Notes: generated by a model not told the origin, from the sequence alone. Shown: positions 382-27,583, counted from the first letter of the stretch. The stretch: DNA of 40,000 bases from an uncultured Thermoleophilaceae bacterium (GCA_963772945.1 CAVYZJ010000005.1:674596-714595), one strand, 5' to 3'. Made by a program: numbers and translations.

Positions 382-1281
382 CTACGCCGCCACGTGCGGC
401 TCGATGAGGCCGACGGCCACCAGCCGATGGTGACAAAGGTCTACGAGGTGCTCGCGCGTTGCGGGTGGGATGGCGTCGCCCCAGGCCTCGGTGGCATCCT
501 CGGAGCGCGCGAGCAGATCGTCGAGGAGCTCTCGGGAGGGCTGAGCCTCGACCAGGCAGCGCAGGCCGAAGCCGATGTGCCAGCGCTCGTCGAGCTCGAC
601 GCGTTCCACGCCCTCGCGCACCCCGGGCAGGGCATCGTCGGCCAGGTACTGGCGCAGCGCGTGATGCGCGGCGTCGAAGACGATCCCCTCGAGCACCATG
701 TGATAGAGGGCGACGCCGTCGCCCAACCCGGCGCGGCCATCCGCGAGCTCCGCGGACATGGCCGGCAGCCGCTCCTCGAAGAGCTCGAGCAGCGCGGGTG
801 GGACGTGGGGCCGGGCCGCTTCGCGCCGTTCGGCCGGGGTGGCTCCGGGCAGCCCGAGCACCTCGGCGGCGATGCGGTCGAACCACTGCGCGTGGCGATC
901 CTCGTCGCGGCGCTGCAGGAAGAAGACCCAGGCCATCAGGCTCTCCTGTGAGGCCAAAGTCGCGTTCCTGGCCACGTCGGCGAACGGCGTGATGTGCTCG
1001 GAGACCGCGTTCTCGGCCACACAGAAGCCGGCGAAAAGAGTCGTGAGGTGGCGGCGACGCTCATCCGGGAGCTCCGGCCAAGCACGCGCGTCAGGGGTGA
1101 GATCGATGGCCGCCGGATCCCACTGTAAGCGGGCCACGAGCTTGGAGAAGAACTTGGGCCAGAAGCCGCGCCTCGGGAGCACGAAGTGCCCGCCCCACGT
1201 GCGTTCCCAGAACACCTTGTCAGCCATAGGGTCGAAAAGAGTATCCACCCACGGCCCACTCGATATCGTTGCTCGCGCCAA
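382..1281 (-). CDS. Ferritin-like di-metal carboxylate protein, ribonucleotide reductase R2-like / R2-like ligand-binding oxidase family
   Basis: There are two EXXH motifs (DEDRH, DERWH) plus the two extra carboxylate segments (CVAENAV, VLEGIVF), spaced as in class I RNR beta subunits and R2lox proteins. The start is uncertain: TTG 1281 (track), GTG 1248 or ATG 1227. Confidence 0.7.
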   Translation of the reverse strand: MARATISSGPWVDTLFDPMADKVFWERTWGGHFVLPRRGFWPKFFSKLVARLQWDPAAIDLTPDARAWPELPDERRRHLTTLFAGFCVAENAVSEHITPFADVARNATLASQESLMAWVFFLQRRDEDRHAQWFDRIAAEVLGLPGATPAERREAARPHVPPALLELFEERLPAMSAELADGRAGLGDGVALYHMVLEGIVFDAAHHALRQYLADDALPGVREGVERVELDERWHIGFGLRCLVEAQPSRELLDDLLARSEDATEAWGDAIPPATREHLVDLCHHRLVAVGLIEPHVAA

Positions 1282-2291
1282 TGTTGGAGCGAAGCATGCT
1301 TCTCGGCGGGGATGTTCAGGCGCGCCGGCCCTCGACCCACGTGAGCCTCTCGCGCGTCGGCGTAACCGGCGTCGAGAAGGTCATCCGCGTTCGGTCGAAC
1401 GGAGCCGAGCAGCTGTTCTATGCGGAGCTCGAGTGTTTCGTCGATCTCGGACCGGAGCAGAAGGGCGCGCACATGTCACGCTTCGAGGAGATCGTCAACG
1501 AGGCGATCGACGAGGTGATCCTCGGGGAGGCCGCCTTCAGGGCTGAGACGCTCGCCTCGCACATCGCGGAGCGCGTCCGGGACCGCCAGGACGGCCGCCG
1601 TGCCGAGGTGACGATCGCGGCGCGCTACCCCGAGCACAAGCGGGCCCCGGTTTCCGGCCTGCCGACCCAGGAGATCTACACGCTGTTGGGGTCGGCTGTG
1701 GCGTCCGCGCGCGGCACCCGGCGGCTCGTCGGGGTCGAGGCGCAGGGCATGACGGCCTGCCCGTGCGCCCAGGAGCTCGTGATGGACCGCTCGCAGGAGC
1801 GGTTGCGGGAGGACGGCTTCACCGACGACGAGATAGCCCGCGTCTTCGAGGCCGTGCCCGTCGCCACGCACAACCAGCGCGGCATAGGCACGCTCCACAT
1901 CGGCTGCCCGGAGGCCTGCGAGGAGGCCCCCGATGCCGAGGCCCTGCTCGAGATCGTCGAGGGCGCCATGAGCTCCGAGATCTACGAGCTGATGAAGCGC
2001 TCGGACGAGGTCGAGGTGGTCGAGAAGGCGCACCTTCGTCCTCGCTTCGTCGAGGACTGCGTACGCGAGATGATCCGCATGGCCATAGATCGCTTCGCCC
2101 CGCTCGGCGAGGACGCGTTCGTGTCGGCGCGGCAGGAGAACCTCGAGACGATCCACAAGCACAACGTGGTGGCCGAGCGCCACGGCCTGCTCGGCGAGCT
2201 GCGGCGTGAGATCGACTCCGGCGAGCGGGTGGGTCACGACGTGACGAAGCGCGAGTGGCTCGAGGACGGGGCCGGCCCGCAGAAGCCCTAG
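1281..2291 (+). CDS. mptA: GTP cyclohydrolase of the FolE2/MptA family (GTP cyclohydrolase IV, first step of methanopterin pterin synthesis)
   Basis: Family hallmarks are GGDVQ near the N-terminus, KGAHMSRF, GMTACPCAQE and ATHNQRG. Context with mptG/mptN/DHPS-like genes favours MptA over FolE2. The start is ATG 1281 or ATG 1296; the track uses TTG 1269. Confidence 0.85.
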   Translation: MLERSMLLGGDVQARRPSTHVSLSRVGVTGVEKVIRVRSNGAEQLFYAELECFVDLGPEQKGAHMSRFEEIVNEAIDEVILGEAAFRAETLASHIAERVRDRQDGRRAEVTIAARYPEHKRAPVSGLPTQEIYTLLGSAVASARGTRRLVGVEAQGMTACPCAQELVMDRSQERLREDGFTDDEIARVFEAVPVATHNQRGIGTLHIGCPEACEEAPDAEALLEIVEGAMSSEIYELMKRSDEVEVVEKAHLRPRFVEDCVREMIRMAIDRFAPLGEDAFVSARQENLETIHKHNVVAERHGLLGELRREIDSGERVGHDVTKREWLEDGAGPQKP

Positions 2292-3628
2292 AGGTGATGC
2301 AGGTACTCGGCGATCTCCCAGTCTGAGACCCAGGCGCGGTGGCGCTCGGTCTCGGAGCGCTTGAGCGCGAGGAACGTCTCGATGAGCTGCGGACCGAAGC
2401 ACTCGCGCAGGACCTGGTCGCTCTCGAGGGCGTCGAGGGCTGCGTCGAGCGAGGCGGGTAGGGCCGGGCCGACCCGCAAGCGGTAGGCATCGCCGTGCAG
2501 GGGCGGCGGCGGAGTCAGTGCCTTGCGCACGCCGTCGGCGCCGGCGGCCAGCACGGCGGCGATCGCCAGATACGGGTTGGCGGCGCCGTCGGCCACCCGG
2601 ATCTCGATGCGCGTCGCGTCGCCACGCTCCGGAGGGATGCGGATGAACGTGGTCCGGTTATCCCAGCCCCAGTTGGCGTGCGTGGGCGCCAGCGAGTCGG
2701 GCTGGAGGCGCCGGTAGGCGTTGACGGTGGGATTGAGGAACGCCATGAGCCCCGCTGCGTGAGCGAGCACCCCGGCCGTGAACCCGTGCAGCTCGGCGCT
2801 CACGCCTTCCCTGTCTCCCGGCCCATCGAACGCGTTGCGCTCCTCCCGGTTCAGTGAGACGTGGAGGTGGGTGCCCGAGCCACCCTCGTCGTTGAAGGGC
2901 TTGCCCATGAAGGTGGCCACGAGGTCGTGCTGCGCCGCAATGTCCTTGACAGTGGACTTGAGACGGAACGCTCCATCGGCGGCCCGCAGGGCATCGGCGT
3001 GGCGCAGATTGATCTCGTACTGGCTGTTCATGAACTCGTGGTTGGAGGCGAGGACCCCCACCCCGAGTGAAGCCAGCGCCTCGGTCATCTCCTGCACGAT
3101 GCCGCCGGGATCCGCCCGGGGACCCACCGTGTAGACCATGCTCGGCTCATCGAGGCGCCGCCGGATGCCGTGTGTTGCCGCCGGATCGCGTCGAAGCAGG
3201 AAGAACTCGAGCTCGGGGCCGACGATCGGGTCGAGCCCGGTCGCCCTCAGGTTCTCCACGACCCGGCGCAGGCTCCCGCGCGGGTCCGGGATGGGCGCTC
3301 CCCCGGCGGCCGGCTCCAGGTTCGCCAGGCAGCTCGCCACGCCCGGCTCCCATGGCAGCGTGGCCATGGTCGACAGGTCCGGACGGGCGACGAGGTCGGG
3401 ATAGCCCTCGGCGCGGCCGGCGACCGGTGTGTGCCGCAGGTCTGTGCCCATCACCGCCGCGCAGAAGAACAGGCCGCTCTCGAGCACGTGGTCGAACTCC
3501 GCGATGGGCACCTCCTTGCCGCGCGGGACGCCGTGGAGGTCGGGAAAGAGCAGGCGGATCGCCGTGACCGGCGTGCCGGCTGGGCGTTCGGTCATGCCCT
3601 CCGCGCGCGGGGTCGTGAAATCGGTCAT
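2288..3628 (-). CDS. Glutamine synthetase family (type I-like, GlnA3/GlnA4/GmaS-like) gamma-glutamyl ligase
   Basis: GS catalytic-domain motifs are present: GPELEFFL, NHEFMNSQYEINLRH, KPFNDEGGSGTHLHVSL and IRIPPERGDATRIEIRVADGAANPYL. ATG 3628 directly abuts the TAG stop (3629-3631) of the upstream gene. The stop shares the palindrome CTAG (2288-2291) with the mptA stop. Confidence 0.85.
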   Translation of the reverse strand: MTDFTTPRAEGMTERPAGTPVTAIRLLFPDLHGVPRGKEVPIAEFDHVLESGLFFCAAVMGTDLRHTPVAGRAEGYPDLVARPDLSTMATLPWEPGVASCLANLEPAAGGAPIPDPRGSLRRVVENLRATGLDPIVGPELEFFLLRRDPAATHGIRRRLDEPSMVYTVGPRADPGGIVQEMTEALASLGVGVLASNHEFMNSQYEINLRHADALRAADGAFRLKSTVKDIAAQHDLVATFMGKPFNDEGGSGTHLHVSLNREERNAFDGPGDREGVSAELHGFTAGVLAHAAGLMAFLNPTVNAYRRLQPDSLAPTHANWGWDNRTTFIRIPPERGDATRIEIRVADGAANPYLAIAAVLAAGADGVRKALTPPPPLHGDAYRLRVGPALPASLDAALDALESDQVLRECFGPQLIETFLALKRSETERHRAWVSDWEIAEYLHHL

Positions 3629-4705
3629 CTAGGCCAGGTGAATGCTCTCGGCGCCGTGCATGCGCAGGTGGTCCAGAGCGGTGCCGCCGGCCTCGCGCAG
3701 GCGCAGCCGCTCGACCAGCGGGGCGTAGCGCCCGCCGGCCAGGCCGTCCGCCAGCACGGCCGCGCCCTGCGCCGCCGTCTTGACACCCGGCCCCAGGCCG
3801 CCGGGGGCACGCACGGCCGCCACCCCGGCGAGCCGCTCCCTCAGCCGATCGATCAGGCCGGGAGCGCGCGCCAGACGGCCGGCGACGAGAATCTCGCGCG
3901 GCGCGGGAACCGAGACCGTCAGGGCGAGCGTGGCCTTCACCGCGCCCTCCTCGAGCGCGAGCCATCCTGCGCGGTGGCCGGGATCGCCTCGCACCGACTC
4001 GAGCGCACCGGGAGCGGAAAGGTCGATCTGGCCGCGCGGATCCAGCGCCCCGCCGCTGAAGACGGTCTCCTTGGAGATCGCCGCTCCCATCAGGTTGGCC
4101 ACCTCCGCGTCGAGCGCCCCACACGAGCGACCGCCGATAGGGGCGCAGGAGCCGCCGACCCCGTCGACGATCTGCCCGCCGTCGACAGCAAGCGCGGCGC
4201 TGAAAGCGCCGCCAAGCTCGAGCATGATGAACGAGGTCTCGTCATAGGCCAGTCCGAGCCGGTCCGCCTGGTCGGTGATGCACAGCGCCGCGCCGGCGAC
4301 CTTGTCGGCCGTCCCGAGGTCGATTCGGTTCCACTTGCGGTGGTCCGGGACGGTAGGCAGGTGGATCACCCCCGGGCCGAAGACCAGTGGGAGCCCGGCG
4401 CCGATGAGCGCGCGGATCATCCCGCGCATGCCGCCGACGCCGGCGCGCGCGCCCGCCTGGTCGCTCCGCAGCAGCAGCATGAGCGAAAGCTCGCGCTCCC
4501 CGACCCGCTCGCCAGGCACGAGCGGCAGCCCGTAGCCGGCGGGGCCCAGCGCGAGGTCGAGGGGACCCTGAGCCACGAGCGCGTCCACCAGCGGCGCCGG
4601 GTCGAGCGCCAGATCAGCCGACCTGAAGCTCTGCTGCGACAGCACCTCGCCGCCGTCGAGCGCGCAGACGTCGATCGAGACGGTGCCGGGGTCCACCCCG
4701 GCCAC
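3629..4705 (-). CDS. Actin-like (ASKHA) ATPase-fold protein, DUF1464-like; conserved unknown
   Basis: The N-terminal phosphate-1 type motif is AGVDPGTVSID. Further segments are PTVPDHRKWNRIDLGTADK and IMLELGGAFSAALAVDGG, as in archaeal/methylotroph DUF1464 proteins (recalled). I prefer GTG 4705, which leaves 19 nt after the mtd stop. The track ATG 4759 would overlap mtd by 35 nt. Confidence 0.65.
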   Translation of the reverse strand: MAGVDPGTVSIDVCALDGGEVLSQQSFRSADLALDPAPLVDALVAQGPLDLALGPAGYGLPLVPGERVGERELSLMLLLRSDQAGARAGVGGMRGMIRALIGAGLPLVFGPGVIHLPTVPDHRKWNRIDLGTADKVAGAALCITDQADRLGLAYDETSFIMLELGGAFSAALAVDGGQIVDGVGGSCAPIGGRSCGALDAEVANLMGAAISKETVFSGGALDPRGQIDLSAPGALESVRGDPGHRAGWLALEEGAVKATLALTVSVPAPREILVAGRLARAPGLIDRLRERLAGVAAVRAPGGLGPGVKTAAQGAAVLADGLAGGRYAPLVERLRLREAGGTALDHLRMHGAESIHLA

Positions 4706-4724
4706 CCGCGGACCGTGCGGCAAC

Positions 4725-5588
4725 TCAGACGATCTCTTTGGCCACGGCGTAGACGCCATCGACGTTGAGCACGAGGTCGTTGCTCTCGAAGAGCCGGCGC
4801 ACGCAGGCCTTGTGCACCTTCATCTTCTGTCCGCCGATGGCCAGCGCGCCGAGGACGAGCTTGCCCTCCCGCTCGACGAGATCGTCCCCGGCCTCGGTGC
4901 CCTCGATCCCGAGCGGCTCCGCCGCGTTGTAGTCGGCCAGAACCTCAATCGTGGGATTCGCGCTCCACACGTCCTGGCGCAGCAGCTCGATGCCGGCCGG
5001 CCCGCTGGCCAAGACGATGTTCGCATCCTCCAGTGCCGCCTCCATCTCCGCTCGGTCGGCCGCCTCAACAGTGTCAAGCCCGATCCGCTCCGCCACCGCC
5101 ATCCCGCGCGGCTTGCGGTAGGAGTCAGTGCCGAGGACGTCGCCCGGGATGGTTGTGGCAAATACCTCGCAGCCCTCTTCCTTGAGCAGGACGGCGGACC
5201 GCAGGCCGACCGGCCCGACGCCCACGATCACCGCGCGCTTGCCGCTCAGGTCGCGGTCCTTTGCGATCAGCGCGACGGCCGTGGCCGCCGTGGTGTTGCA
5301 GCCGTCGGAATCGAGCATCGCGGACAGGCGGAAGGGGCCGAAGTACGCCCCCTCCACCTGCTCGAGAACCTCCTCGCCCGCGCCCACGTCCGACCCGCCG
5401 ACCCAGACCGCCATCGAGGAGTCGCCGGGAGCGCGCGTGAAGAACGCTCCCTGAACGAGCGCCTGTACCGCCTCCGGCGTCACGCTGCCGTGACTGAGCA
5501 GGACATCGACATCCGCGTCCTGGGCCACGATCGCGTCGAACGGGCTGGGATGTTGATCGGTGTCGAGCTGTAGAAGGACCTTCTTCAC
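4725..5588 (-). CDS. mtdB: NAD(P)-dependent methylene-tetrahydromethanopterin dehydrogenase (MtdA/MtdB family)
   Basis: The 287-aa protein is recognisable as MtdA/MtdB. Its N-terminal half reads LLQLDTDQHPSPFD...VWVGGSD and it has the Rossmann loop RAVIVGVGPVGLRSA. It lies between fae and H4MPT genes. The MtdB versus MtdA choice rests on context only. The start is GTG. Confidence 0.8.
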   Translation of the reverse strand: MKKVLLQLDTDQHPSPFDAIVAQDADVDVLLSHGSVTPEAVQALVQGAFFTRAPGDSSMAVWVGGSDVGAGEEVLEQVEGAYFGPFRLSAMLDSDGCNTTAATAVALIAKDRDLSGKRAVIVGVGPVGLRSAVLLKEEGCEVFATTIPGDVLGTDSYRKPRGMAVAERIGLDTVEAADRAEMEAALEDANIVLASGPAGIELLRQDVWSANPTIEVLADYNAAEPLGIEGTEAGDDLVEREGKLVLGALAIGGQKMKVHKACVRRLFESNDLVLNVDGVYAVAKEIV

Positions 5589-5615
5589 AGCGTGGGCCCG
5601 CGGCCCTGCGCGCGC

Positions 5616-6128
5616 CTAGCCCTCGACGCCGCCGGCGAACGGGTGCCGCGCCTCGGCCACCCCTTCGATCACGGTGCTCGCGGCGGGCTCGTTGGCCATC
5701 GCGCGCGCGATCGACTCCTTGGTGGCCTCGTAGTTGTAGTCGAAGATCTTCTTGTCGTCCTCGGCCAGCCAGTGGATGAAGACGCCCACGATGATGCAGA
5801 GGTCGTCGGCATCCGACTCGGAGATCACCCCGTCGCGCACCGAGTCGACGACGGCCCGTGCCACCGCCGCCTGGGCGGGCCCGAACATCTGCCCGACCTG
5901 CTTCTCACCCCTGATCGTCACCTTGTTCGCCATGAGCGTGTCGGGCTTCGCGGGCAGGTTGGGCGCGACCACGGCCAGCAGGTTCGTGTGGCCCTCCTTC
6001 TGGTTCAGGAGTGCAGCGGCGAACGCTTGGCCGACCGGCCCGTCCTTGGATCCGACCAATAGATCGATGTGAGCGACCTCGTTGCCGTCGCCGACAAGGG
6101 ACTCCCCGACCGACATGGACATGGCCAT
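5616..6128 (-). CDS. fae: Formaldehyde-activating enzyme (5,6,7,8-tetrahydromethanopterin hydro-lyase)
   Basis: The 170-aa protein has characteristic Fae segments [30 protein letters not shown] and [11 protein letters not shown] strong SD AAGGGAGGGG (minus strand, 6135-6144) lies 6 nt upstream of ATG 6128. Confidence 0.92.
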
Positions 6129-6239
6129 CTAATTCCCCTCCCTTGGTGGTTCTCTCAGATTCGCGCGAAGGCTATCGCTACGGAGGCGGCCGGCGCAGGA
6201 CGGCTCGCCGGTCCCGCGTGGATATGCTCCGGCGCGCGG
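6129..6239. promoter_or_regulatory. Divergent control region between the fae operon (leftward) and the fhcBADC operon (rightward)
   Basis: This 111-nt non-coding gap is the largest within nt 1300-24000. Both flanking operons must initiate here. It contains the fae SD. Only weak -10-like hexamers are present (e.g. TAGCCT on the minus strand, TATGCT on the plus strand), so no promoter position is asserted. Confidence 0.4.
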
Positions 6240-7475: not shown

Positions 7476-7481
7476 CGCGGC

Positions 7482-12923: not shown

Positions 12924-12944
12924 TGTCGCGCCCCCAGGACGTCG

Positions 12945-14541: not shown

Positions 14542-14574
14542 TGTGGTCGCCTCGCTGCCCGGAGAGGCTCGCGC

Positions 14575-16256: not shown

Positions 16257-16281
16257 GTTGAGCACCGTATAGGTGTCAAAG

Positions 16282-17930: not shown

Positions 17931-18508
17931 TCGCTTCCCAATGCGACGCGCACGTGCCTCCGCACGAGCTCCATCGCCTCGAGCTCGCGCGGCCCGGCCG
18001 TCTTGTCGACCAGCACCTGGAGGCGCTCCAGGTCCGCGTGGATCTCGGCAGGCGGGAGGCGGCGCACGCGCGACGCGATGATCGATGCCTCGAGCACCGC
18101 GTGACGCGCCCGGTTGAACCCGAGGAACTCACGCCCGGTCCCCTGCCCGACGACGCGCGTGGTCACCCGCGCGCGCGGCCCACTCGCTTCGATCTCCTCG
18201 ACCTCGACCTCGCGCCAGGAACAGGCGTCCGCCAACACCGCGCCGTCGATCGCCGCTGCGGACCGCGTGGGCGGGCGCGGATCGCCGAGCGCCGCCTGCG
18301 TGAAGAGCAGGATGTCGTCGGTGAGGTGGACCACCGCCGCCCCTGTCGCCTGCAGGTTGCGCAGCGTCCGCGTCGGGCGGTAGGGCTTGATGACGATGAT
18401 CTCGTCGCCCCACTCCACCCCCATCGCGGCGCAGTTGACCGTGCCGTCCGGGTTGATGGTCGTGGTTACCGTCTCGACGATCGCGGCCCCGGGCGGGCGC
18501 GCGCTCAT
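17927..18508 (-). CDS. DUF447-family protein (split-barrel, flavin-reductase-like fold); conserved unknown of H4MPT clusters
   Basis: IVETVTTTINPDGTVNCAAMGV and VIKPYRPTRTLRNL match the DUF447 pattern as I recall it from archaea and methylotrophs. ATG 18508 overlaps the mch stop (ATGA). Confidence 0.65.
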   Translation of the reverse strand: MSARPPGAAIVETVTTTINPDGTVNCAAMGVEWGDEIIVIKPYRPTRTLRNLQATGAAVVHLTDDILLFTQAALGDPRPPTRSAAAIDGAVLADACSWREVEVEEIEASGPRARVTTRVVGQGTGREFLGFNRARHAVLEASIIASRVRRLPPAEIHADLERLQVLVDKTAGPRELEAMELVRRHVRVALGSE

Positions 18509-19455
18509 CCCCTGAAGGACCGCTCGAGGACGCCGACGTCAACGGCCCCGGCGTGAAAGCTGCGCCCGCTCGACACGCTCGTCAGGCGCACCTCGGCCGG
18601 GCTGAAGAGCAGCGGGTCGATCTCGTAGAAGTCGCCGCCGGCTTGCTCGAGTACGCGCGCGAAGGGTTCGCCATGGTCCCGCGAGGCGGACGCGGGCAGG
18701 CGCGGCACGATCGACTCGAGCTCCTCGTCGGGGGCATCGACGCTGAGCTCCACCTGGCCGCCGTAGAGGACGGCGTCGTTGGTGCGACCGATCGCCTCGC
18801 CGTCGTCTCGGGCGACCGGCGGGAGCGGACAGCTCCCGAAACCGCTCACCACTCGCCCGACGTCGAAGTCGAGCTCGTGGAGCTTGTGCAGCGCGGTCTC
18901 GACCACGCGCGCGGCGATCTGAACCCCGCCGGCCAGGCTGGCGGTCGGCGCGAACAGCAGCGTCAGGTCCCCTGCCGTGACACCGGCGCGCTCCGCCACA
19001 TACTCGGCGAGCGGTTCCGGTGGCGGCTCGCGCGCCTCGAGGCACAGCGTCGCGCTCTGCGCCCGCTCGTCGACGTCGAGATCGTCGTAGAGGTCCTCGG
19101 CCCGGATCAAGGCGCGGCCCGGCCCGCTGGCCATCGCGAAGTAGTCGTCCCGGTCCAACTTCCAGCCCGCGTACTGAGAGGCCAGACAGGCAAGCGCCGG
19201 CCGATCGGTCACAACCGTGACCCCGGGAAGCCAGCGGCCCTCGAGCACCAACGGGACGAACGACACCCAGCCCATGCCACCCATGCAGATCTGGGCGAAG
19301 CGGCGGCCGGCCTCGAAGCCACCGGCGACCGCGCTGCCGCAGTCGATCAGGCGCGTGCCGTTCGGGAGCGTCGTGACCTCCACACGCAGGGCGTCGGCCT
19401 CGGCGGCCAGGCGGTCGGCGAGCTCATGTGCGCGATCGTTTAGCGAGGGGGTCAC
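18505..19455 (-). CDS. mch: Methenyltetrahydromethanopterin cyclohydrolase
   Basis: The 316-aa protein has Mch-typical segments ACLASQYAGW, ASGPGRAL and GRTNDAVLYGG. GTG 19455 overlaps the upstream stop (GTGA). Confidence 0.9.
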   Translation of the reverse strand: MTPSLNDRAHELADRLAAEADALRVEVTTLPNGTRLIDCGSAVAGGFEAGRRFAQICMGGMGWVSFVPLVLEGRWLPGVTVVTDRPALACLASQYAGWKLDRDDYFAMASGPGRALIRAEDLYDDLDVDERAQSATLCLEAREPPPEPLAEYVAERAGVTAGDLTLLFAPTASLAGGVQIAARVVETALHKLHELDFDVGRVVSGFGSCPLPPVARDDGEAIGRTNDAVLYGGQVELSVDAPDEELESIVPRLPASASRDHGEPFARVLEQAGGDFYEIDPLLFSPAEVRLTSVSSGRSFHAGAVDVGVLERSFRG

Positions 19456-20573
19456 GATGCGGCCTGAGCATAAGCCTCTCGCTCACCAAGCTCGGTGCGC
19501 AGCGCGGAGGCGCGCTCCTCGAGGTCGGCGAGCACGGCGTGCGGGGAGCCCTGGGTCGAGACGAGCGTGCAGATCGGATGCCCGGCCGCGATCCGCTCGT
19601 GCGGGTGAGGCACGTCGCGAATGCCGCGCGCCGGCCAGCCGCGGGTATCCCCGACGCGCAGGTTACGGGTGGCGAACAGGATCGCCTTGCCGGCCGCCCG
19701 GCGCGGTGCCGGAGCGGGAGCGACCGGGGGCAGACGCCCGGCGCAACCCTCGAGGTGGGCTTCGAAGACGCCCACCCGGTGCGCCGCCTCGACGGGTTCA
19801 AGTGAACCCGTGGGCCGGGGGTTGACCTCGACGACCCAGGCTCGCTCGCCGTCCCACACGAAGTCCACGCCGAACAGCCCCCGGAATCCGAACTGGACAG
19901 CCAGGTGCGCGCAGATCGTCAGCGCGGCGGCGGCCAGCTCGCCTCGCTGCTTCTCCTCGAGCCGCGGCGGCACGAGGTTGCCGCACCACGCGTAGCCGCG
20001 CGCGCCGAGCCCGCGGTGCCCGATCAGCTGCTCGCTCACGCCGAGCACGACGGCCGAGCGGCCGTCGGCGACCGCAGCGGCCGAGCAGGCCAGCCCGGAG
20101 ATCCGCTCCTGCACCACGACATCCCCGTCGAGCGCCCCGCCGCGCCACTGCCGGATGCCCCGCCCGCCGCCGCCGCGCACCGGCTTGCGCAGCCAGCGGC
20201 GCGAGGGCTCCGCGAGCCGGGGAGCGTCGCTGGCGGCGAATGTCTGCGGATACGCGAGGCCGGCTGCCCGCAGGGAGGCGCCCAGGACAGCCGGGTCACG
20301 CACGCGCTCGAGCGTCTCGGGCTGACACCCGAGCAGGGTCCGGCCGGACGCGAGCCGGGCCACGAGCCCCGGCTGGTTCTCCAGGCCCGCGCCGTAGATC
20401 ACGCTCGGCGCGGAGATCTCCTCCGCGGCGTCCACCAACGTCGCCATCCCGCCCCGCCCGCCCAGATCGCGCAGCACGGACACGCTCGGGCAGAGCCGCT
20501 GCAGGTCGAAATCCCCGAAGCGGTCGAGCGCCACCACCTCGTGCCCGGCACTCATCGCCAGCTGGGCGAGCAT
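19452..20573 (-). CDS. ATP-grasp ligase of the H4MPT/methanofuran gene set (COG2232-type, MfnD-like candidate)
   Basis: The ATP-grasp core has VVQERISG, GNLVPP and FGVDFVWDGERAWVVEVNPRP. The coordinates use the first ATG (20573). The conserved N-terminus (LEPILLVAVSAR) continues in frame upstream with no ATG/GTG/TTG, so see the finding on a possible CTG start at 20615. Confidence 0.75.
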   Translation of the reverse strand: MLAQLAMSAGHEVVALDRFGDFDLQRLCPSVSVLRDLGGRGGMATLVDAAEEISAPSVIYGAGLENQPGLVARLASGRTLLGCQPETLERVRDPAVLGASLRAAGLAYPQTFAASDAPRLAEPSRRWLRKPVRGGGGRGIRQWRGGALDGDVVVQERISGLACSAAAVADGRSAVVLGVSEQLIGHRGLGARGYAWCGNLVPPRLEEKQRGELAAAALTICAHLAVQFGFRGLFGVDFVWDGERAWVVEVNPRPTGSLEPVEAAHRVGVFEAHLEGCAGRLPPVAPAPAPRRAAGKAILFATRNLRVGDTRGWPARGIRDVPHPHERIAAGHPICTLVSTQGSPHAVLADLEERASALRTELGEREAYAQAAS

Positions 20574-20611
20574 GCGCGCGCTGACCGCGACCAGCAGGAT
20601 CGGCTCCAGGC

Positions 20612-21493
20612 TCAGAGCAGGCCCTCCAGCAGCGCCACGAAGAGCACGGCGGTCACCACATCGGCCGTGGTACCCGGGTTGAGCGCGTTGCCGTCGCTGC
20701 GCAGGAAGGCGTCGAATCCGGCCAGAGCGGTCCGGCCCGAGGCGTTGCGCACGCCGCCGGCGCCGAGCACCTCCCTCGCCCCCGCCGCCACTCGACCGGC
20801 CGCGGCGGCGCCGCGCTTGCGAGCGATCAGCGTGTCCGGCACGGCGGCGAGGAGGCGCAGCGCCAGCTCGACCGTGGCGTCGCGAGGGCGCAACCCATCG
20901 CCCAGCGCATCGCCGAGGGCGGGCAGCCCGAGCTCGAACGTCACCGCGTAATCGGTGAGGTACTCGCCGGCGATCGTGTCGCGCTGCGCGGCGGCCGCCA
21001 TGGCCTCGCGCAGCGTCACCCGTGGTTCCTCACGCACGTCATGCTCGACGGGCTCGTCGAGCCCGCCCGGCCCGGCGAGGCGGATCGCCGCGTAGGCGCC
21101 TCGCGCGTCGTCGACGGTGAGCGCCCGCAGCACGTCGCCGAGGCGCTTACGGAGGGTGCCCCCGATCAAAGCCGCGCGCGCGAGCGGCGCCAGGAGCAGC
21201 GCGATCCCGAGGTTGGTGTTGGCGCCGGCGGCGTCACGCGAGGCACGTACGGCGGCCAGCACCGTCTCGCCGATCGCTCGCTCGCCCGCCCGGCCCAGCT
21301 CGGGACCGAGCGCGATCCCGCTGCGCAGCATGTCCTCGTAGGAGGTGTCGCCGAAGTCGTGGCTGGGCGTGATGTTGCCCGGCTTTTCGGCGCTGGCCTC
21401 CAGCACACAGGCCAGCTGCGCAGCCTGCACGACGACGTCGGGGGCAAGACGAGCGGCGCCGTCCGCCGTCTGCTTGACCGGCATTTGCGGCAT
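20612..21493 (-). CDS. Triphosphoribosyl-dephospho-CoA synthase (CitG/MdcB)-like protein of the H4MPT-linked gene set
   Basis: ASAEKPGNITP, GANTNLGIALLL and NPGTTADVV are CitG-family segments. The start is ATG 21493 (MPQMPVK) or ATG 21484. The upstream 50 codons of the track ORF run antisense into the SDR gene. Confidence 0.75.
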   Translation of the reverse strand: MPQMPVKQTADGAARLAPDVVVQAAQLACVLEASAEKPGNITPSHDFGDTSYEDMLRSGIALGPELGRAGERAIGETVLAAVRASRDAAGANTNLGIALLLAPLARAALIGGTLRKRLGDVLRALTVDDARGAYAAIRLAGPGGLDEPVEHDVREEPRVTLREAMAAAAQRDTIAGEYLTDYAVTFELGLPALGDALGDGLRPRDATVELALRLLAAVPDTLIARKRGAAAAGRVAAGAREVLGAGGVRNASGRTALAGFDAFLRSDGNALNPGTTADVVTAVLFVALLEGLL

Positions 21494-21505
21494 CGTATAG
21501 CTGAG

Positions 21506-22291
21506 ATGTCGGACCAGGTGGCGCAGCCGGGCGGTCGCCGGCTCGACGGGGTGCGGGCCGTGGTAACGGGCTCCAGCAGCGGCATCGGCGCCGCCATCGC
21601 CGAGGCTTTCGGCGCCGCGGGCGCGACGGTGCTCGTGACACACCGCGACAGCTCGGAGGGCGCCTCTGCGGTCGCCGAGCGGATCACCGGCGCCGGTGGC
21701 CGCGCCCTGGTCGCCCAGGCGGACCTGGGCACTCGCGACGGATGTGAGGCGCTGGTCGGGGAGGCGCAGGAACGGCTCGGCGGGCTAGACGTCTGGGTCA
21801 ACAACGCGGGCGCAGACGTGCTGACCGGCGAGGCAGCCGGCTGGGACTGGGAGCGCAAGCTCGACCTCCTGGTCGCCGTCGACCTCAAGGGAACCGTCGC
21901 GTGCTCGCGTGCCGCCGGCGCCGTCATGCGCGAGCAGGCCGGCGGCGGAGTCATCGTGAACATGAGCTGGGACCACGTGACCACCGGTATGGCCGGCGAG
22001 AACCCGGAGCTGTTCAACGCCGTGAAGGGCGGCGTGCTCGCCTACAGCAAGAGCCTCGCACGCAGCCTGGCTCCCCGGGTCCGTGTGAACGTGCTGTGCC
22101 CGGGCTGGATCGAGACCGGCTTCGCGCAGGAAGCCGACAGCGAGTTCCGTCGCTCGGTCACGGAGTCGACGCCCCTTGCCCGCTGGGGCCGTCCGGAGGA
22201 CGTCGCCGCGACCGCGCTCTGGCTGGCGTCGCCCGAGGCGGCGTTCGTCACCGGTCAGGCCGTCAACATCAACGGCGGCGTTGTGATGTAG
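21506..22291 (+). CDS. Short-chain dehydrogenase/reductase (classical SDR fold) with a non-canonical active-site motif
   Basis: Cofactor loop AVVTGSSSGIG, NNAG, IVNMS and PGWIETGF are present. At the expected YxxxK position the sequence reads FNAVK. ATG 21506 (alternative GTG 21518) was trimmed from the track start 21041. Confidence 0.8.
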   Translation: MSDQVAQPGGRRLDGVRAVVTGSSSGIGAAIAEAFGAAGATVLVTHRDSSEGASAVAERITGAGGRALVAQADLGTRDGCEALVGEAQERLGGLDVWVNNAGADVLTGEAAGWDWERKLDLLVAVDLKGTVACSRAAGAVMREQAGGGVIVNMSWDHVTTGMAGENPELFNAVKGGVLAYSKSLARSLAPRVRVNVLCPGWIETGFAQEADSEFRRSVTESTPLARWGRPEDVAATALWLASPEAAFVTGQAVNINGGVVM

Positions 22292-22315
22292 TGAGCCAGA
22301 AGGAGGGATCACGCA

Positions 22316-22681
22316 ATGGAGACGACCGCAAAGACCAAGCCGTACACCGACGAGGAGGTCGAGGCCAAGATCAGCGAGCACGGCCTCGACGGCTGGTACC
22401 TCGACGGCGGGTGGCTCCGGCGCAAGTACAACACCGACGGCTGGCCGACGACGCTGATGCTCGTCAACGCCATCGGCTACCTGTCCGAGGCGGCCTACCA
22501 TCACCCGGACCTGGCGGTGACCTGGGGCAAGGTGTGGGTAAAGCTGCAGACGCACTCGAGCGGCGGCATCACCGACAAGGATTTCGCCCTCGCGCGCGAG
22601 ATCGAGGATCACGTGCTGTGGCGGCCTGAGTCCGACAGCGCGCTCGAGGGATCGCCGAACAAGTTCGTCGTGAGCAAGTAG
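22316..22681 (+). CDS. Pterin-4a-carbinolamine dehydratase (PCD/DCoH family)
   Basis: The 121-aa protein carries the PCD signature EAAYHHPDLAVTWGKVWVKLQTHS. A strong SD AAGGAGGG (22300-22307) lies 8 nt upstream of the ATG. Confidence 0.85.
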   Translation: METTAKTKPYTDEEVEAKISEHGLDGWYLDGGWLRRKYNTDGWPTTLMLVNAIGYLSEAAYHHPDLAVTWGKVWVKLQTHSSGGITDKDFALAREIEDHVLWRPESDSALEGSPNKFVVSK

Positions 22682-22701
22682 CGCCCCGCGCGCACACGCC
22701 C

Positions 22702-24075
22702 GTGGCCGAGCGGCTCCTGTTCGTAACCGGCAAGCTCGCCGCGGCGGCGCTCCGCGACACGCTGGACCGCACGGAGCTTCCGTTCGACTACGACGTCGCG
22801 GTCATGAAGATCACGGTCGCCGCGCTGATGACCACAACCTGGATCGCGCGCTTCCTCGAGCCTCCCGACGCGGTCACCAAGATCATGATCCCCGGCCTCT
22901 GCGAGGGAGAGACCGACGTGCTGGCGGAGCGCTTCGGAGTCCCGGTCGAGAAGGGCCCGGCGGACCTCAAGCGGCTGCCGGCCTGGTTCGGGCAGGCCGA
23001 CGCGCGCGCCAGCTACGGGCCGCGCGACATCCGCGTGTTCGCGGAGATCAACCACGTTCCGAGGCTGAGCCGCGACCGCATCCTCGAGCTCGCGGGCTAC
23101 TACCGCGACTCCGGCGCCGATGTGATCGACCTGGGCCTGTCGCTCGAGGGCAGCTGGCTCGAGGAGGGCCCGGCGGTGATCGCCGAGCTGCGCGAGCGCG
23201 GCTTCACCCTCAGCATCGACACGATGGACACCGAGGAGATTCTGATGGCCGACGAGGCGGGCGTCGACTACGTCCTCAGCCTCAACGGCTCCAACCGCGA
23301 ACTCGCCGAGCGACTGCGCGCGATCCCGGTGCTCATCCCCGACACGCCCGACGACCTGGACAGCCTCGACGCCACGGTCGCCCACCTCGAGGGCCTCGGC
23401 AAGCCCTACCTCGTCGACCCGATCATCGAGCCGATAGGCACGGGCTTCGCGGCCAGCCTCGGGCGCTACCTGGGGGTGCGCCGGCGCCATCCCGACGCGG
23501 AGATGTTCATGGGGATCGGCAACCTCACCGAGCTGACCGAGGCGGACAGCACGGGGGTGACGGCGACGCTCATCGGCTTCTGCCAGGAGCTAGGCATCCG
23601 CAATGTGCTCACCACCGAGGTCATCGAGTGGGCGCACGGTGCCGTGCGGGAGGCGGTGCTGGCGGCGCAGCTCATGTACTTCGCGCAGGAGCAAGGAACC
23701 CCGCCCAAGCACGTCGACGGGCGGTTGCTGACCGTGAAGGACGAGGACCTCCGCCCTTACGCGGAGTCCGAGCTGCGCGAGCTGCACGCGCAGGTGACCG
23801 ACCCGAACTTCCGGATCTTCGCCGACAGCGAGTGGATCTACGTCTTCAACGCCGAGCTGTTCGTCAAGGGCACCGACTTCAACGAGATCTTCGACCAGCT
23901 CGGGGTGGATGAGCCGACGCACGCCTTCTATCTCGGCAAGGAGCTGATGAAGGCCACTATCGCGCGCGCCCTGCGCAAGAACTATCGCCAGGAATCGCCC
24001 CTCGACTGGGGCTACATGACGTTCGAGGAGCCGCGCCGAGAGCGCGTCCGGCTGACCACGCGGCTCAAGGAGTAG
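22702..24075 (+). CDS. Dihydropteroate synthase-like protein with N-terminal extra domain (H4MPT biosynthesis, MptH-like)
   Basis: The pterin-binding barrel has DVIDLGL, SIDT and GIGNLTELTEADSTGV. It follows an N-terminal about 100-aa domain (LLFVTGKLA...) typical of methylotroph/archaeal DHPS-related proteins. The start is GTG. Confidence 0.8.
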   Translation: MAERLLFVTGKLAAAALRDTLDRTELPFDYDVAVMKITVAALMTTTWIARFLEPPDAVTKIMIPGLCEGETDVLAERFGVPVEKGPADLKRLPAWFGQADARASYGPRDIRVFAEINHVPRLSRDRILELAGYYRDSGADVIDLGLSLEGSWLEEGPAVIAELRERGFTLSIDTMDTEEILMADEAGVDYVLSLNGSNRELAERLRAIPVLIPDTPDDLDSLDATVAHLEGLGKPYLVDPIIEPIGTGFAASLGRYLGVRRRHPDAEMFMGIGNLTELTEADSTGVTATLIGFCQELGIRNVLTTEVIEWAHGAVREAVLAAQLMYFAQEQGTPPKHVDGRLLTVKDEDLRPYAESELRELHAQVTDPNFRIFADSEWIYVFNAELFVKGTDFNEIFDQLGVDEPTHAFYLGKELMKATIARALRKNYRQESPLDWGYMTFEEPRRERVRLTTRLKE

Positions 24076-24152
24076 CCGATTTCCGGGCTTTCATCGACCG
24101 CGGCTACCTGTTAGTGTCGCGCCCCGTCATAGGACCAAGAGGGAGGAGTCGC

Positions 24153-27511: not shown

Positions 27512-27583
27512 TCCTCCCGCGAGGCCCTCGACTCGGGTCGGGAGTCTAAGTCAACGCCAGCATGAGGCGTCAGCCGATCGTCG

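Follow-up and report, generated by a model that had tools for sequence, protein, structure and literature searches.

An H4MPT-linked C1-oxidation island adjoining a PQQ alcohol dehydrogenase cassette, predicted in an uncultured Thermoleophilia bacterium from soil

Genes of the island

Genes were called by a GC3-based procedure in a stretch of 40,000 nucleotides (the window), and families were assigned by Pfam and NCBIfam scans. Scores below are given against the curated cut-off where there is one. The catalytic genes are:

4725-5588, minus: Mtd, NAD(P)-dependent methylene-H4MPT dehydrogenase, MtdA/MtdC-like (Pfam Mpt_N, 2e-23)
5616-6128, minus: Fae, formaldehyde-activating enzyme (TIGR03126, 243 bits vs 118)
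6240-7475, plus: FhcB (TIGR03129, 321.5 bits vs 327.8, slightly under cut-off)
7482-9131, plus: FhcA, formyl-methylofuran hydrolase subunit, an amidohydrolase (TIGR03121, 690 bits vs 393)
9074-10030, plus: FhcD, formylmethanofuran:H4MPT formyltransferase (TIGR03119, 407 bits vs 293); start likely at 9125
10027-10842, plus: FhcC (TIGR03122, 261 bits vs 131)
18505-19455, minus: Mch, methenyl-H4MPT cyclohydrolase (TIGR03120, 388 bits vs 229)

These results bear out the first-pass annotation, which had placed Fae, Mtd, Mch and FhcB-A-D-C here and claimed a complete H4MPT route from formaldehyde to formate: all ORFs are intact, Fae, Mch, FhcA, FhcD and FhcC exceed the equivalog cut-offs, and FhcB is 6 bits short. 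Fae matches that of M. extorquens (1y5y) with 200 bits and ∼60% identity by eye, and keeps an 11-residue motif. Mtd scores 227 bits against the MtdA structures 1lu9 and 6tge and is 31% identical to Azospirillum MtdB. For FhcD the score is higher with the M. extorquens protein (6s6y_D, 322 bits) than with archaeal Ftr (268-277 bits). FhcB scores 226 and 216 bits against archaeal FwdB versus 52 bits against M. extorquens FhcB, and keeps the 4Fe-4S cysteine motif CxxCxxxCDD...C. In the alignment, the SVCHG motif, whose metal-ligand Cys is the catalytic residue (PMC6926001), is missing from FhcB of the window and of the Thermoleophilia orthologues and is kept in two out-group sequences (L046 and L059). 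The equivalents of the pterin-ligating Cys118 and His119 are deleted from FhcB, and the Fhc complex is therefore taken to be a hydrolase rather than a CO2-forming dehydrogenase.

The catalytic genes are surrounded by genes assigned to cofactor biosynthesis:

1269-2291, plus: MptA, GTP cyclohydrolase (TIGR00294, 287 bits vs 220; Pfam GCHY-1, 4.8e-68)
10770-12908, minus: PabA-PabB fusion, aminodeoxychorismate synthase (GATase, Anth_synt_I_N, Chorismate_bind; TIGR00553 pabB, 352 bits vs 328)
12858-13832, plus: RimK-type glutamate ligase, MptN/MyfB (Orf5)-like (Pfam RimK, 8e-33; MptN_Meth, 245 bits, under 350)
13822-14541, minus: HisA/HisF-like, Orf17 homologue (His_biosynth, 8.7e-40; TIGR00734, 132 bits, under 180)
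14575-15591, plus: MfnF-like (Orf9) H4MPT-linked C1 pathway protein (TIGR03123, 320 bits vs 244); start placed at ATG 14575
15588-16256, plus: MfnE-like (Orf21-like) amino-acid-kinase-fold kinase (AA_kinase, 2.6e-17; MfnE model, 95 bits, far under 300)
16282-16992, minus: MfnB, (5-formylfuran-3-yl)methyl phosphate synthase (Pfam 4HFCP_synth, 4.4e-70; NCBIfam models, 225 bits, under 304)
16989-17930, minus: MptG, beta-ribofuranosylaminobenzene 5'-phosphate synthase (TIGR00144, 150 bits vs 113.5)
17927-18508, minus: DUF447 split-barrel protein (DUF447_N and DUF447_C)
19452-20573, minus: ATP-grasp ligase, MyfA (OrfY)/MfnD-like (ATP-grasp_3, 7.5e-24; weak MfnD match)
20612-21643, minus: CitG-like triphosphoribosyl-transferase homologue, assigned to H4MPT biosynthesis (Pfam CitG, 1.2e-66)
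22316-22681, plus: pterin-4a-carbinolamine dehydratase (PCD) homologue (Pterin_4a, 5.8e-24; NF002017, 84 bits vs 80)
22702-24075, plus: DHPS-like pterin-binding protein, MptH/Orf19-like (DUF6513, Pterin_bind, DUF4346; TIGR00284, 161 bits, under 257)

At least a dozen cofactor genes had been recognised before, and about 18 for H4MPT and methylofuran were found, including every one named beforehand (mptA, pabAB, RimK/MptN-like, HisA/F-like, mfnF, mfnE, mfnB, mptG, DUF447, ATP-grasp, CitG-like, DHPS-like and DUF1464). The under-scoring MfnB, MfnE, Orf17-like, MptN-like and DHPS-like proteins are putative assignments from family-level similarity and synteny. Among 37 long related loci, the RimK-type gene adjoins mch or mfnF in 35, and the synteny of mfnE is likewise kept in 35; the Orf17-like gene, whose homologue is needed for methylofuran synthesis in M. 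extorquens (PMC8141765), occurs in more than 40 loci. DUF447 proteins are frequent in H4MPT gene islands, that of Azospirillum included; the Azospirillum ATP-grasp protein is 33% identical to ours, both genes adjoining mch, and a PCD homologue also lies upstream of fhcB there. A 1055-residue ORF at 10770-13937 (minus) was rejected as a high-GC artefact and replaced by pabAB, the RimK-type ligase and the HisA/F-like gene.

The module had also been called self-contained. This holds for the catalytic route and fails for several cofactor steps and for formate: the window contains no DmrA-, DmrB- or DmrX-type dihydromethanopterin reductase, no equivalents of MfnA, MfnC, PabC or MptB/D/E, no formate dehydrogenase and no assimilation pathway. 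Further genes lie within the island:

382-1281, minus: R2lox-like di-metal carboxylate protein, cluster member (R2-like ligand-binding oxidase models)
2288-3628, minus: glutamine-synthetase (GS)-family ligase (Pfam Gln-synt_C, 6.8e-104)
3629-4759, minus: DUF1464 protein (PF07318, 2.3e-74)
21557-22291, plus: classical SDR reductase (adh_short_C2, 7e-51)

The R2lox-like protein matches 4hr0 at all six metal-ligand positions and at the Val and Tyr of the cross-link; in 19 of the 37 long loci an orthologue is encoded no more than 10 kb from mch, and in the Solirubrobacteraceae layout it sits between mfnE and mfnB. The GS-like ligase, which closes the fae-mtd-DUF1464-GS run, falls under every curated GS subtype cut-off and is about equidistant in the PDB from GS (264 bits) and glutamate-methylamine ligase (228 bits); a 40%-identical gene lies within the Solirubrobacteraceae cluster. 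The DUF1464 protein found no relative in a PDB search and has a homologue within the H4MPT cluster of locus L046. The SDR gene adjoins the DHPS-like gene in 35/37 long loci, as well as in a Planctomycetota locus (L076), and its product may be a non-homologous dihydromethanopterin reductase in place of the missing one.

The earlier description ended at 24075; the island runs on rightwards into a PQQ alcohol dehydrogenase and pqqABCDE:

24114-24587, plus: MSMEG_3727-family PQQ-associated protein (TIGR04339, 249 bits vs 75; PF23509, 246 bits)
24624-26318, plus: PQQ-dependent alcohol dehydrogenase, methanol/ethanol family (TIGR03075, 582 bits vs 480)
26489-27511, minus: Na+/Ca2+ exchanger (domain scan)
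27584-28186, minus: ChrB_N protein (domain scan)
28208-30757, plus: P-type cation ATPase (domain scan)
30850-30924, plus: pqqA, peptide MKWIKPEFEIMDLCTEVTLYLYNR
30967-31875, plus: pqqB (356 bits vs 245)
31872-32609, plus: pqqC (TENA_THI-4)
32606-32869, plus: pqqD (PF05402)
32856-33953, plus: pqqE (503 bits vs 381)

The pqqABCDE set is complete. In the PDB the dehydrogenase scores 350 bits against PedH, 280 against XoxF and 245 against MxaF, and it keeps the Cys-Cys pair, the Glu, the Asn and a WDYD motif with the extra Asp of lanthanide enzymes. Its full-length relatives comprise one cluster at 59% identity, all others being at 47% or below. The enzyme has no signal peptide, and in its orthologues the reading frame is closed by a stop 3-12 codons ahead of the start codon; signal peptides are present in all 16 more distant full-length relatives inspected. 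The MSMEG_3727-type protein (real start at ∼24140-24150), which is kept in 26 loci, has none either. Because neither protein carries an export signal, the oxidation may be cytoplasmic, and such a PQQ front end is possibly novel. Neither XoxJ nor a cytochrome c partner lies near the dehydrogenase, no CxxCH motif occurs among the predicted proteins of the window, and no electron acceptor is recognisable. The three genes between 26489 and 30757 form a lineage-specific 4.4-kb insert, of which at least one gene was detected in L006, L008, L013-15 and L042 and all three in L008; in other relatives the dehydrogenase directly adjoins pqqB. Whether the insert belongs to the island is uncertain.

Predicted pathway and its function

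The locus is best explained as a Thermoleophilia chromosomal C1-oxidation island (∼382-33953) that probably combines the H4MPT route with a PQQ-dependent alcohol-oxidising front end. Judged by sequence, Fae would condense formaldehyde with (dephospho-)H4MPT, the MtdA/C-like dehydrogenase would oxidise methylene- to methenyl-H4MPT, and Mch would convert the latter to formyl-H4MPT. Within FhcBADC, the FhcD subunit would move the formyl group onto a methylofuran-type cofactor, from which FhcA would release formate by hydrolysis. H4MPT would be made via MptA (the first step towards its pterin moiety), PabAB (supply of pABA), MptG, the DHPS-like and CitG-like proteins, DUF447 and PCD, and a polyglutamylated furan cofactor via MfnB, MfnE, MfnF and the Orf17-, MyfA- and MyfB-like proteins. 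Formaldehyde would arise chiefly by oxidation of methanol (or of some other primary alcohol) by the adjacent lanthanide-type dehydrogenase and its MSMEG_3727-type partner, with PQQ supplied by pqqABCDE. The adjoining PQQ dehydrogenase and pqqABCDE are the most informative context of the module.

The module may alternatively serve formaldehyde detoxification, as in Burkholderia and planctomycetes, rather than methylotrophic growth; formaldehyde would then be a product of demethylation or of other metabolism, with the PQQ enzyme oxidising ethanol or other alcohols. The lack of assimilation genes and of formate dehydrogenase in the window agrees with this, as does the dehydrogenase being closest, among characterised enzymes, to the ethanol enzyme PedH and not to XoxF. 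Non-methylotrophs do detoxify by the same pathway (PMC8879981; PMC10994693). M. smegmatis, which carries the PQQ cassette too, shows no growth on methanol (PMC6529628), and the cassette of Streptomyces sp. NBC_01483 has no H4MPT genes within 15 kb; both points also speak against the main reading. Against detoxification, 24 of the 37 long loci, across families and in both layouts, have the PQQ dehydrogenase or its partner no more than 10 kb from mch, and this adjacency favours a functional link to a formaldehyde-producing enzyme. Ethanol oxidation, moreover, yields acetaldehyde, which Fae does not handle. Detoxification is regarded as the less likely reading, although it retains appreciable weight. 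MAGs of Solirubrobacteraceae and Thermoleophilia have been obtained from 13C-methanol heavy DNA (PMC10994693), and the C1-oxidation reading suggests that a common soil bacterial group may use methanol, so far unrecognised.

Operation in reverse, as a reductive, anabolic route that leads from CO2 or formate to methylene-H4MPT in the manner of methanogens, would suit the archaeal affinity of FhcB and its 4Fe-4S motif but is highly improbable given the deleted Cys118 and His119 equivalents, the absence of an FwdD-like domain among the scanned ORFs, the presence of two enzymes typical of the oxidative bacterial route (Fae and an Mtd linked to NAD(P)), and an FhcD nearer that of M. extorquens than archaeal Ftr.

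Host and spread of the module

The DNA is chromosomal and comes from an uncultured soil member of the Thermoleophilia, a class of Actinomycetota. At Mch identities of at least 69%, the same module was found in 51 species-representative genomes, nearly all MAGs labelled Thermoleophilaceae, Solirubrobacteraceae or Paraconexibacteraceae, in two conserved layouts; the module is thus common among Thermoleophilia MAGs. The block is kept gene for gene across these loci, which places its conservation far beyond chance. Actinobacterial labels, mostly of Thermoleophilia families, apply to 49 of the 51, several on contigs of 0.3-1.5 Mb and some above 1 Mb. In a neighbour-joining tree of FhcA and FhcD with two proteobacterial sequences (Azospirillum and Azoarcus), the Thermoleophilia form one clade apart from both, with a substructure that matches the family labels. 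The actinobacterial background proposed earlier is thereby upheld, as are the flanking genes: domain scans confirmed the GPP34-like gene, the MSMEG_3727-like partner and the cslA-glxA-GH6 cluster (GlxA equivalog, 942 bits vs 800).

Recent acquisition of the island from a methylotroph among the Proteobacteria or planctomycetes, or misassignment of a non-actinobacterial contig, would accord with the Polyangiaceae (L019) and Chloroflexia (L051) bin labels of the remaining two loci and with the transposases that flank the PQQ cassette in Streptomyces. The single clade makes recent transfer or misbinning unlikely, however, and the actinobacterial cslA-glxA-GH6 cluster within the same window, the 49 concordant labels, the low identities to Planctomycetota Mch (at most 50%) and proteobacterial Fhc proteins (28-55%), the uniform GC content (0.67-0.75), and the absence of tRNA genes from the window and of integrase or transposase domains from the scanned ORFs render either event barely credible.

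Formaldehyde handling in actinobacteria is treated in the literature as mycothiol- or RuMP-based, with H4MPT activity not detected in Amycolatopsis methanolica (PMC8879981); the first-pass annotation had named the same classical routes and called the H4MPT pathway little documented in the phylum. The actinobacterial occurrence as such is not new: Chistoserdova 2016 already named Actinomycetes among the phyla with these genes (PMC5020050). A full-text literature search found no experimental work on this locus. The predicted Thermoleophilia pathway is a known route in a new lineage.

Comparison with known systems

The cluster of Methylorubrum (Methylobacterium) extorquens shares with the window the four catalytic steps and homologues of MfnB, MfnE, MfnF, Orf17, OrfY/MyfA, Orf5/MyfB, MptG, PabB, the CitG-like and DHPS-like proteins and DUF447. 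It also shares the transcription order fhcBADC (PMC6926001), found in Azospirillum and Azoarcus as well, so that the gene order is not the departure from Methylobacterium that had been supposed. In contrast to M. extorquens, the window derives from a Gram-positive-type actinobacterium; its FhcB is archaeal FwdB-like with an N-terminal 4Fe-4S motif, its Mtd is MtdA/C-like and not MtdB-like, DmrA is lacking, MptA replaces FolE, the R2lox-like, GS-like, DUF1464 and SDR genes are added, and the cluster is joined to a PQQ cassette without signal peptide.

A contig from an uncultured soil Gemmatimonadetes bacterium (Butterfield et al. 2016, PMC5103831) is likewise non-proteobacterial, and its fae, mtd, mch, fhc and H4MPT biosynthesis genes directly adjoin those that encode a PQQ methanol dehydrogenase and make PQQ. 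Its diderm host has a periplasmic XoxF plus a maturation protein, whereas the dehydrogenase of the window is PedH-like, carries no export signal and has an MSMEG_3727-type partner. This partner (TIGR04339) and adjacent pqq genes recur in M. smegmatis MSMEG_3721-3727 and on a plasmid of Streptomyces sp. NBC_01483, whose dehydrogenase is 71% identical to ours and shares its M-x-x-EYVDAG N-terminus without signal peptide; unlike in the window, H4MPT genes are missing within 15 kb of the Streptomyces cassette and are not mentioned for M. smegmatis in papers on the cassette. The enzyme of the window resembles the lanthanide-dependent PQQ alcohol dehydrogenases PedH, ExaF (both for ethanol) and XoxF (for methanol) in belonging to the eight-bladed propeller family TIGR03075 and in having the vicinal Cys-Cys pair, a catalytic Asp, the Glu and Asn that bind the metal, and the extra Asp (DxD) by which lanthanide enzymes are recognised; it differs in lacking a signal peptide and in having neither XoxJ nor a cytochrome c partner nearby.

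Finally, the archaeal Fwd/Fmd-Ftr-Mch module of methanogenesis contains homologues of FhcA, FhcB, FhcC, FhcD and Mch, and MptA, MptG, MfnB, MfnE and MfnF are of archaeal type. Unlike in that module, the B subunit has lost the catalytic Cys, FwdD is absent, and the enzymes that depend on F420 or H2 have given way to Fae and an NAD(P)-dependent Mtd, with a proposed flow in the oxidative direction.

Gene content and catalytic core

The gene map of the window (∼70% G+C) was drawn from third-position GC together with Pfam and NCBIfam scans. All genes are open, with no frameshift or internal stop. The first-pass annotation had closed the H4MPT/methanofuran module at position 24075; the island runs on rightwards into an MSMEG_3727-family protein (denoted the partner), a PQQ alcohol dehydrogenase (denoted the dehydrogenase) and pqqABCDE, and the features listed from 24114 onward all lie beyond that limit.

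Genes of the window (coordinates, strand, identity)
left end of the window, GPP34-like fragment
382-1281, minus, R2-like ligand-binding oxidase (R2lox)-like protein
1269-2291, plus, mptA
2288-3628, minus, glutamine synthetase (GS)-like ligase, last of the run fae-mtd-DUF1464-GS
3629-4759, minus, DUF1464
4725-5588, minus, mtd
5616-6128, minus, fae
6240-10842, plus, fhcB-A-D-C, contiguous and co-directional, with fhcB at 6240-7475
10770-12908, minus, pabAB
12858-13832, plus, RimK-type ligase
13822-14541, minus, HisA/F-like orf17
14575-15591, plus, mfnF
15588-16256, plus, mfnE
21643-16282, minus, run of CitG-like, ATP-grasp, mch, DUF447, mptG, mfnB
21557-24075, plus, SDR, pterin-4a-carbinolamine dehydratase (PCD), DHPS-like protein
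24114-24587, partner, MSMEG_3727 family
24624-26318, PQQ alcohol dehydrogenase
26489-30757, three-gene cation-transport/ChrB_N insert
30850-33953, pqqABCDE
33988-38937, GH6-cslA-glxA
last on the map, an epimerase

Antisense shadow ORFs abound in mechanical ORF lists for this stretch, and long ones are a trap when high-GC DNA is gene-called by ORF length. A 1055-residue ORF (10770-13937) resembling an X-PabA-PabB fusion was rejected as an artefact: no family matches its N-terminal third, and the opposite strand codes for the RimK ligase and the HisA/F-like protein. A second long shadow ORF (585 residues, 13822-15579) overlies genes of the opposite strand. The HisA/F-like gene, masked by a spurious N-terminal extension of mfnF on the other strand, had been claimed at first reading and is real (His_biosynth, 8.7e-40).

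Fae, Mtd, Mch and FhcB-A-D-C, to which the first-pass annotation had assigned the steps from formaldehyde to formate, are all present and intact at the coordinates listed. Fae, FhcA, FhcD, FhcC, Mch, MptA, MptG, PabB and MfnF score above the NCBI curated cut-offs, and FhcB (321.5 bits versus 327.8) falls 6 bits short. Fae (TIGR03126, 243 bits versus a cut-off of 118) can be aligned along its entire length to the M. extorquens enzyme of known crystal structure (1y5y, 200 bits) and keeps the active-site motif. Mch reaches 388 bits in TIGR03120 (cut-off 229), and FhcD scores higher against M. extorquens FhcD than against archaeal Ftr. Mtd carries the Pfam Mpt_N domain and aligns over its full length to MtdA (227 bits), matches that do not distinguish between subtypes A, B and C or their cofactor specificity. 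The gene order had been thought to differ from that of Methylobacterium; fhcBADC is also the order of M. extorquens (PMC6926001), Azospirillum and Azoarcus, and by this comparison the order in the window is the common one. Judged from the sequence, the reading of the locus as an H4MPT pathway of formaldehyde oxidation is correct in its main thrust.

Distribution and history in Thermoleophilia

An Mch scan with one genome per species yielded 76 loci. Fifty-one of these share 69–88% Mch identity with the window; nearly all bear the label Thermoleophilaceae, Solirubrobacteraceae, Solirubrobacterales, Paraconexibacteraceae or 'Actinomycetes', and many lie on long-read contigs of 0.3–1.5 Mb. The next relatives are at most 53% identical and come from Gemmatimonadaceae, Anaerolineales, Planctomycetota, Halanaerobium and Thorarchaeota. 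Cultured strains are absent from the 51 close loci, and in the full set of 76 Halanaerobium alone is an isolate. The nearest species representative shares 88% nucleotide identity over 20 kb, and the window therefore represents a different species of the same lineage. Two loci labelled Polyangiaceae (L019) and Chloroflexia (L051) have Mch sequences 76–79% identical to that of the window; misbinning of Thermoleophilia contigs is the probable cause, rather than transfer. The actinobacterial background surmised from the sequence is supported by the labels of the close loci and by the actinobacterial cslA-glxA-GH6 cluster (GlxA equivalog, 942 bits), known as the Streptomyces system of a cellulose-like glycan and a radical copper oxidase.

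Alignment of all window proteins against the related loci by tblastn revealed two stable layouts. The Thermoleophilaceae layout is that of the window; in the Solirubrobacteraceae layout, fae adjoins the trio of SDR, PCD and DHPS-like genes, mch follows fhcBADC, and the block encloses the R2lox gene and a GS-like gene. In a third, deeper group (L022, L045 and L049), most genes are 46–68% identical. In a neighbour-joining tree of FhcA+FhcD, calculated without bootstraps and with Azospirillum and Azoarcus as the only proteobacterial sequences, Thermoleophilia form one clade with three subclades, corresponding to the two layouts and the deeper group. This clade stands apart from Azospirillum and Azoarcus; it is also separate from L046, an actinomycete MAG, and Halanaerobium, which pair with each other. 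The GC content is uniform across the window, which contains no tRNA genes, and no integrase or transposase domains were detected in the ORFs scanned. Together with the single clade, these features argue for long residence of the island in the class Thermoleophilia rather than recent import. In a plasmid collection, the fhc region found only distant proteobacterial matches (65–70% nucleotide identity). An archaeal-type C1 pathway in a deep actinobacterial class bears on the debate over vertical inheritance versus transfer.

FhcB, cofactor biosynthesis and conserved accessory genes

FhcB of the window scores 226 and 216 bits against archaeal FwdB and 52 bits against M. extorquens FhcB. The SVCHG segment, which holds the pterin-ligating residues Cys118 (ligand of tungsten or molybdenum) and His119, is deleted in the window protein and its Thermoleophilia orthologues, whereas the N-terminal 4Fe-4S motif CxxCxxxCDD of archaeal FwdB and its fourth Cys are kept. 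In M. extorquens FhcB, the Fe-S domain and the catalytic Cys are both gone (PMC6926001); the Thermoleophilia proteins share with it the second loss and differ in retaining the Fe-S motif. With this combination, Thermoleophilia FhcB looks like an intermediate state on the path from Fwd to Fhc that was proposed on the basis of the M. extorquens structure. No FwdD-like or molybdopterin-binding domain was detected in the ORFs scanned in the window. The Fhc complex would be expected to release formate, acting as a hydrolase and not as a dehydrogenase. Two B subunits among the related loci keep SSVCHGP, one in Actinomycetes bacterium LH_M24 (L046, 1775-3010) and one in Halanaerobium polyolivorans (L059, 5351-6580); both may be parts of genuine formylmethanofuran dehydrogenases, the first in an actinomycete MAG and the second in a cultured Firmicute.

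Methylofuran genes were assigned after Hemmann et al. 2021 (PMC8141765), where MfnB is Orf22, MfnE is Orf21, MfnF is Orf9, Orf17 is HisA/F-like, MyfA is OrfY (ATP-grasp) and MyfB is Orf5 (RimK type). MfnF lies above its cut-off, and MfnB matches its Pfam family strongly. MfnE (95 bits versus 300), the Orf17-like protein (132 versus 180) and the MptN/MyfB-like protein (245 versus 350) fall below theirs, yet they are syntenic in 33–35 of the 37 long loci. The MyfA/OrfY-like ATP-grasp gene adjoins mch both in the window and in Azospirillum. Since homologues of MyfA and MyfB are present, we infer a polyglutamylated methylofuran rather than archaeal methanofuran. For H4MPT, MptA (287 bits versus 220), MptG (150 versus 113.5) and PabB (352 versus 328) exceed their cut-offs; the DHPS-like protein does not (161 versus 257), and its pterin-binding domains are present. 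A PCD homologue is also found upstream of fhcB in Azospirillum.

The description of the module as self-contained holds only in part. The block includes the H4MPT genes mptA, mptG, pabB and the DHPS-like gene as well as methylofuran genes, and the window contains no PLP-dependent decarboxylase or aminotransferase domain as expected of MfnA (tyrosine decarboxylase) and MfnC (aminotransferase), which may be encoded elsewhere in the genome. Also missing from the window are PabC, equivalents of MptB/D/E, formate dehydrogenase and, as judged by the absence of DHFR-like and flavoprotein domains, a dihydromethanopterin reductase of the DmrA, DmrB/AfpA or DmrX type.

The trio SDR-PCD-DHPS-like is conserved; the SDR gene adjoins the DHPS-like gene in 35 of the 37 long loci and in a Planctomycetota MAG (L076, 13446-15609). 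Among the reductases of the window, this conserved SDR is the only one that has no assigned role. Planctomycetes have no recognisable Afp reductase (Chistoserdova 2016, PMC5020050). Because the known reductases are missing from the window, the SDR gene lies beside the DHPS-like gene and planctomycetes present the same gap, the SDR is a reasonable candidate for dihydromethanopterin reductase.

The genes fae, mtd, DUF1464 and the GS-family ligase share one transcriptional direction. DUF1464 has no PDB relative by sequence; its gene also occurs inside the related cluster of L046 (7065-8156). A GS-like gene, 40% identical, lies inside the cluster in the Solirubrobacteraceae layout (L024, 17291-18600). 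No substrate could be assigned to the ligase from its relatives, GS and glutamate-methylamine ligase being about equally distant. It could carry out γ-glutamylation in methylofuran synthesis. The R2lox-like protein has all metal ligands and the Val/Tyr cross-link residues intact. Its gene is found no more than 10 kb from mch in 19 of the 37 long loci (L021-L038 and others); in the Solirubrobacteraceae layout, mfnE and mfnB flank it. We know of no established physiological role for R2lox proteins, and the C1-island setting is a possible lead to one.

The PQQ dehydrogenase and comparison with known systems

The dehydrogenase belongs to TIGR03075 (582 bits versus a cut-off of 480). Against PDB entries it scores 350 bits with PedH, 302 with quinohaemoprotein alcohol dehydrogenase, 280 with XoxF and 245 with MxaF; by these scores it is nearer to ethanol-type PedH and does not group with XoxF. 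It retains the vicinal Cys-Cys pair, the metal-binding Glu and Asn, and a WDYD motif with the extra lanthanide-type Asp, to which the DFD of the lanthanide ethanol dehydrogenase PedH aligns. Just upstream is the partner, a conserved protein of 145–150 residues (TIGR04339, 249 bits versus 75), and pqqABCDE is complete, with a 24-residue PqqA carrying the canonical E-x-x-x-Y. In 24 of the 37 long loci, and in both layouts, mch has the gene of the dehydrogenase or of the partner no more than 10 kb away, and it is mainly for this reason that we propose that the dehydrogenase feeds formaldehyde to the H4MPT pathway.

In the window, a 4.4-kb insert (Na+/Ca2+ exchanger, ChrB_N protein and P-type cation ATPase) parts the dehydrogenase from pqqA. 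At least one insert gene was detected in six close relatives and all three only in the related locus L008; elsewhere the dehydrogenase adjoins the pqq genes. A link of the insert to Ca2+ or lanthanide supply is conceivable.

Neither the dehydrogenase nor the partner carries an export signal. The dehydrogenase begins with MATEYVDAG, and all 13 orthologues aligned to residue 1 start M-A-T/N-E-(E/D)-Y-V-D-A-G. An in-frame stop lies 3–12 codons 5′ of the start in most of 16 orthologues, and 3–14 codons in most of those aligned to residue 1; in two it lies at 31 and 36 codons. The most hydrophobic 12-residue stretch within the first 50 residues has a hydropathy of 0.82 in the dehydrogenase and 0.35 in the partner, compared with 2.4–2.6 in the secreted GH6 lipoprotein and GlxA of the window. 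The clade is isolated: among 1.84 billion representative proteins searched, one full-length cluster comes as near as 59% identity, and all others stay at or below 47%. A hydrophobic signal peptide is present in all 16 full-length relatives inspected (≤59% identity), that of the 59% relative with a lipobox. The simplest reading of these N-termini is a cytoplasmic quinoprotein, which would contradict the usual picture of periplasmic quinoproteins; export by an unrecognised route is possible.

No CxxCH (haem c) motif as expected of the cytochrome c XoxG was found in the predicted window proteins, nor, as a counterpart of XoxJ, any solute-binding protein nearby. The partner was rejected as a classical cupredoxin, as the C-terminal Cys/His/Met copper-ligand positions read Gly/Asn/Leu by eye and no Pfam cupredoxin match was obtained. 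It possibly has a non-cupredoxin metal site formed by the invariant M48, H86, C87 and H104. Its AlphaFold2 model, built on a shallow alignment (75–91% identity to the query), has a mean pLDDT of 49.8.

The cassette also occurs in the cultured Streptomyces sp. NBC_01483, on a linear plasmid (L079, NZ_CP109439.1, 58172-88564). The order partner, dehydrogenase, pqqB-E is that of the window, and the dehydrogenase is 71% identical and equally signal-less; unlike in the window, H4MPT genes were not found nearby. The flanks carry a peroxidase-family (catalase-peroxidase-like) gene, MntP and transposases, and these neighbours give no clue to the substrate. Because transposases flank this copy, there is a hint that the cassette is mobile. 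The cultured host makes the signal-less dehydrogenase experimentally accessible. The related genes MSMEG_3721-3727 of M. smegmatis have been described bioinformatically, not functionally (PMC6529628).

That actinobacteria classically handle formaldehyde by mycothiol or RuMP routes, as initially noted, agrees with a recent review, according to which A. methanolica showed no detectable H4MPT activity (PMC8879981). The pathway had further been called little documented in the phylum. This applies to the present lineage, where it has not been studied; for the phylum, Actinomycetes were already counted in 2016 among carriers of these genes, from unpublished genomes (Chistoserdova 2016, PMC5020050). 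According to one recent study, Gram-positive bacteria would not be expected to have enzymes of the XoxF type (PMC10875860). The literature searched, with most subscription journals outside its coverage, yielded no description of an H4MPT pathway in Thermoleophilia, and those reports found that touch on the class do not ascribe methanol or formaldehyde consumption to it.

Abundance in soil is often reported for Thermoleophilia, Solirubrobacterales among them. It is possible, if on balance doubtful, that soil Thermoleophilia, and more widely actinobacteria with the MSMEG_3726/3727 cassette, oxidise methanol wholly in the cytoplasm, with a lanthanide-type PQQ dehydrogenase from which the signal peptide was lost, a small MSMEG_3727-type protein replacing cytochrome c, and formaldehyde going straight to the cytoplasmic H4MPT/methylofuran pathway. 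If true, this would constitute a previously unrecognised Gram-positive methylotrophy in an abundant soil lineage. In that case the island would further supply candidates for cofactor steps that lack an assigned enzyme, with the SDR as a fourth Dmr type and the GS-like ligase in the first glutamylation, as well as a physiological setting for a protein of the R2lox family. With some 50 species-level genomes having a conserved island that pairs a PQQ alcohol dehydrogenase with the complete H4MPT route, a large group would join the soil sink for methanol.

Taken together, the pathway is of a well-known kind, and what is new is a lineage in which it has not been studied. The added value lies in the breadth of its conservation in uncultured soil Thermoleophilia, the intermediate-looking FhcB, the conserved R2lox-like, GS-like, DUF1464 and SDR genes and, above all, the physical coupling of the H4MPT island to a signal-less lanthanide-type PQQ dehydrogenase. 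This enzyme differs from XoxF-type methanol dehydrogenase, in which an N-terminal signal peptide directs periplasmic export, and shares with it the additional lanthanide-coordinating Asp.
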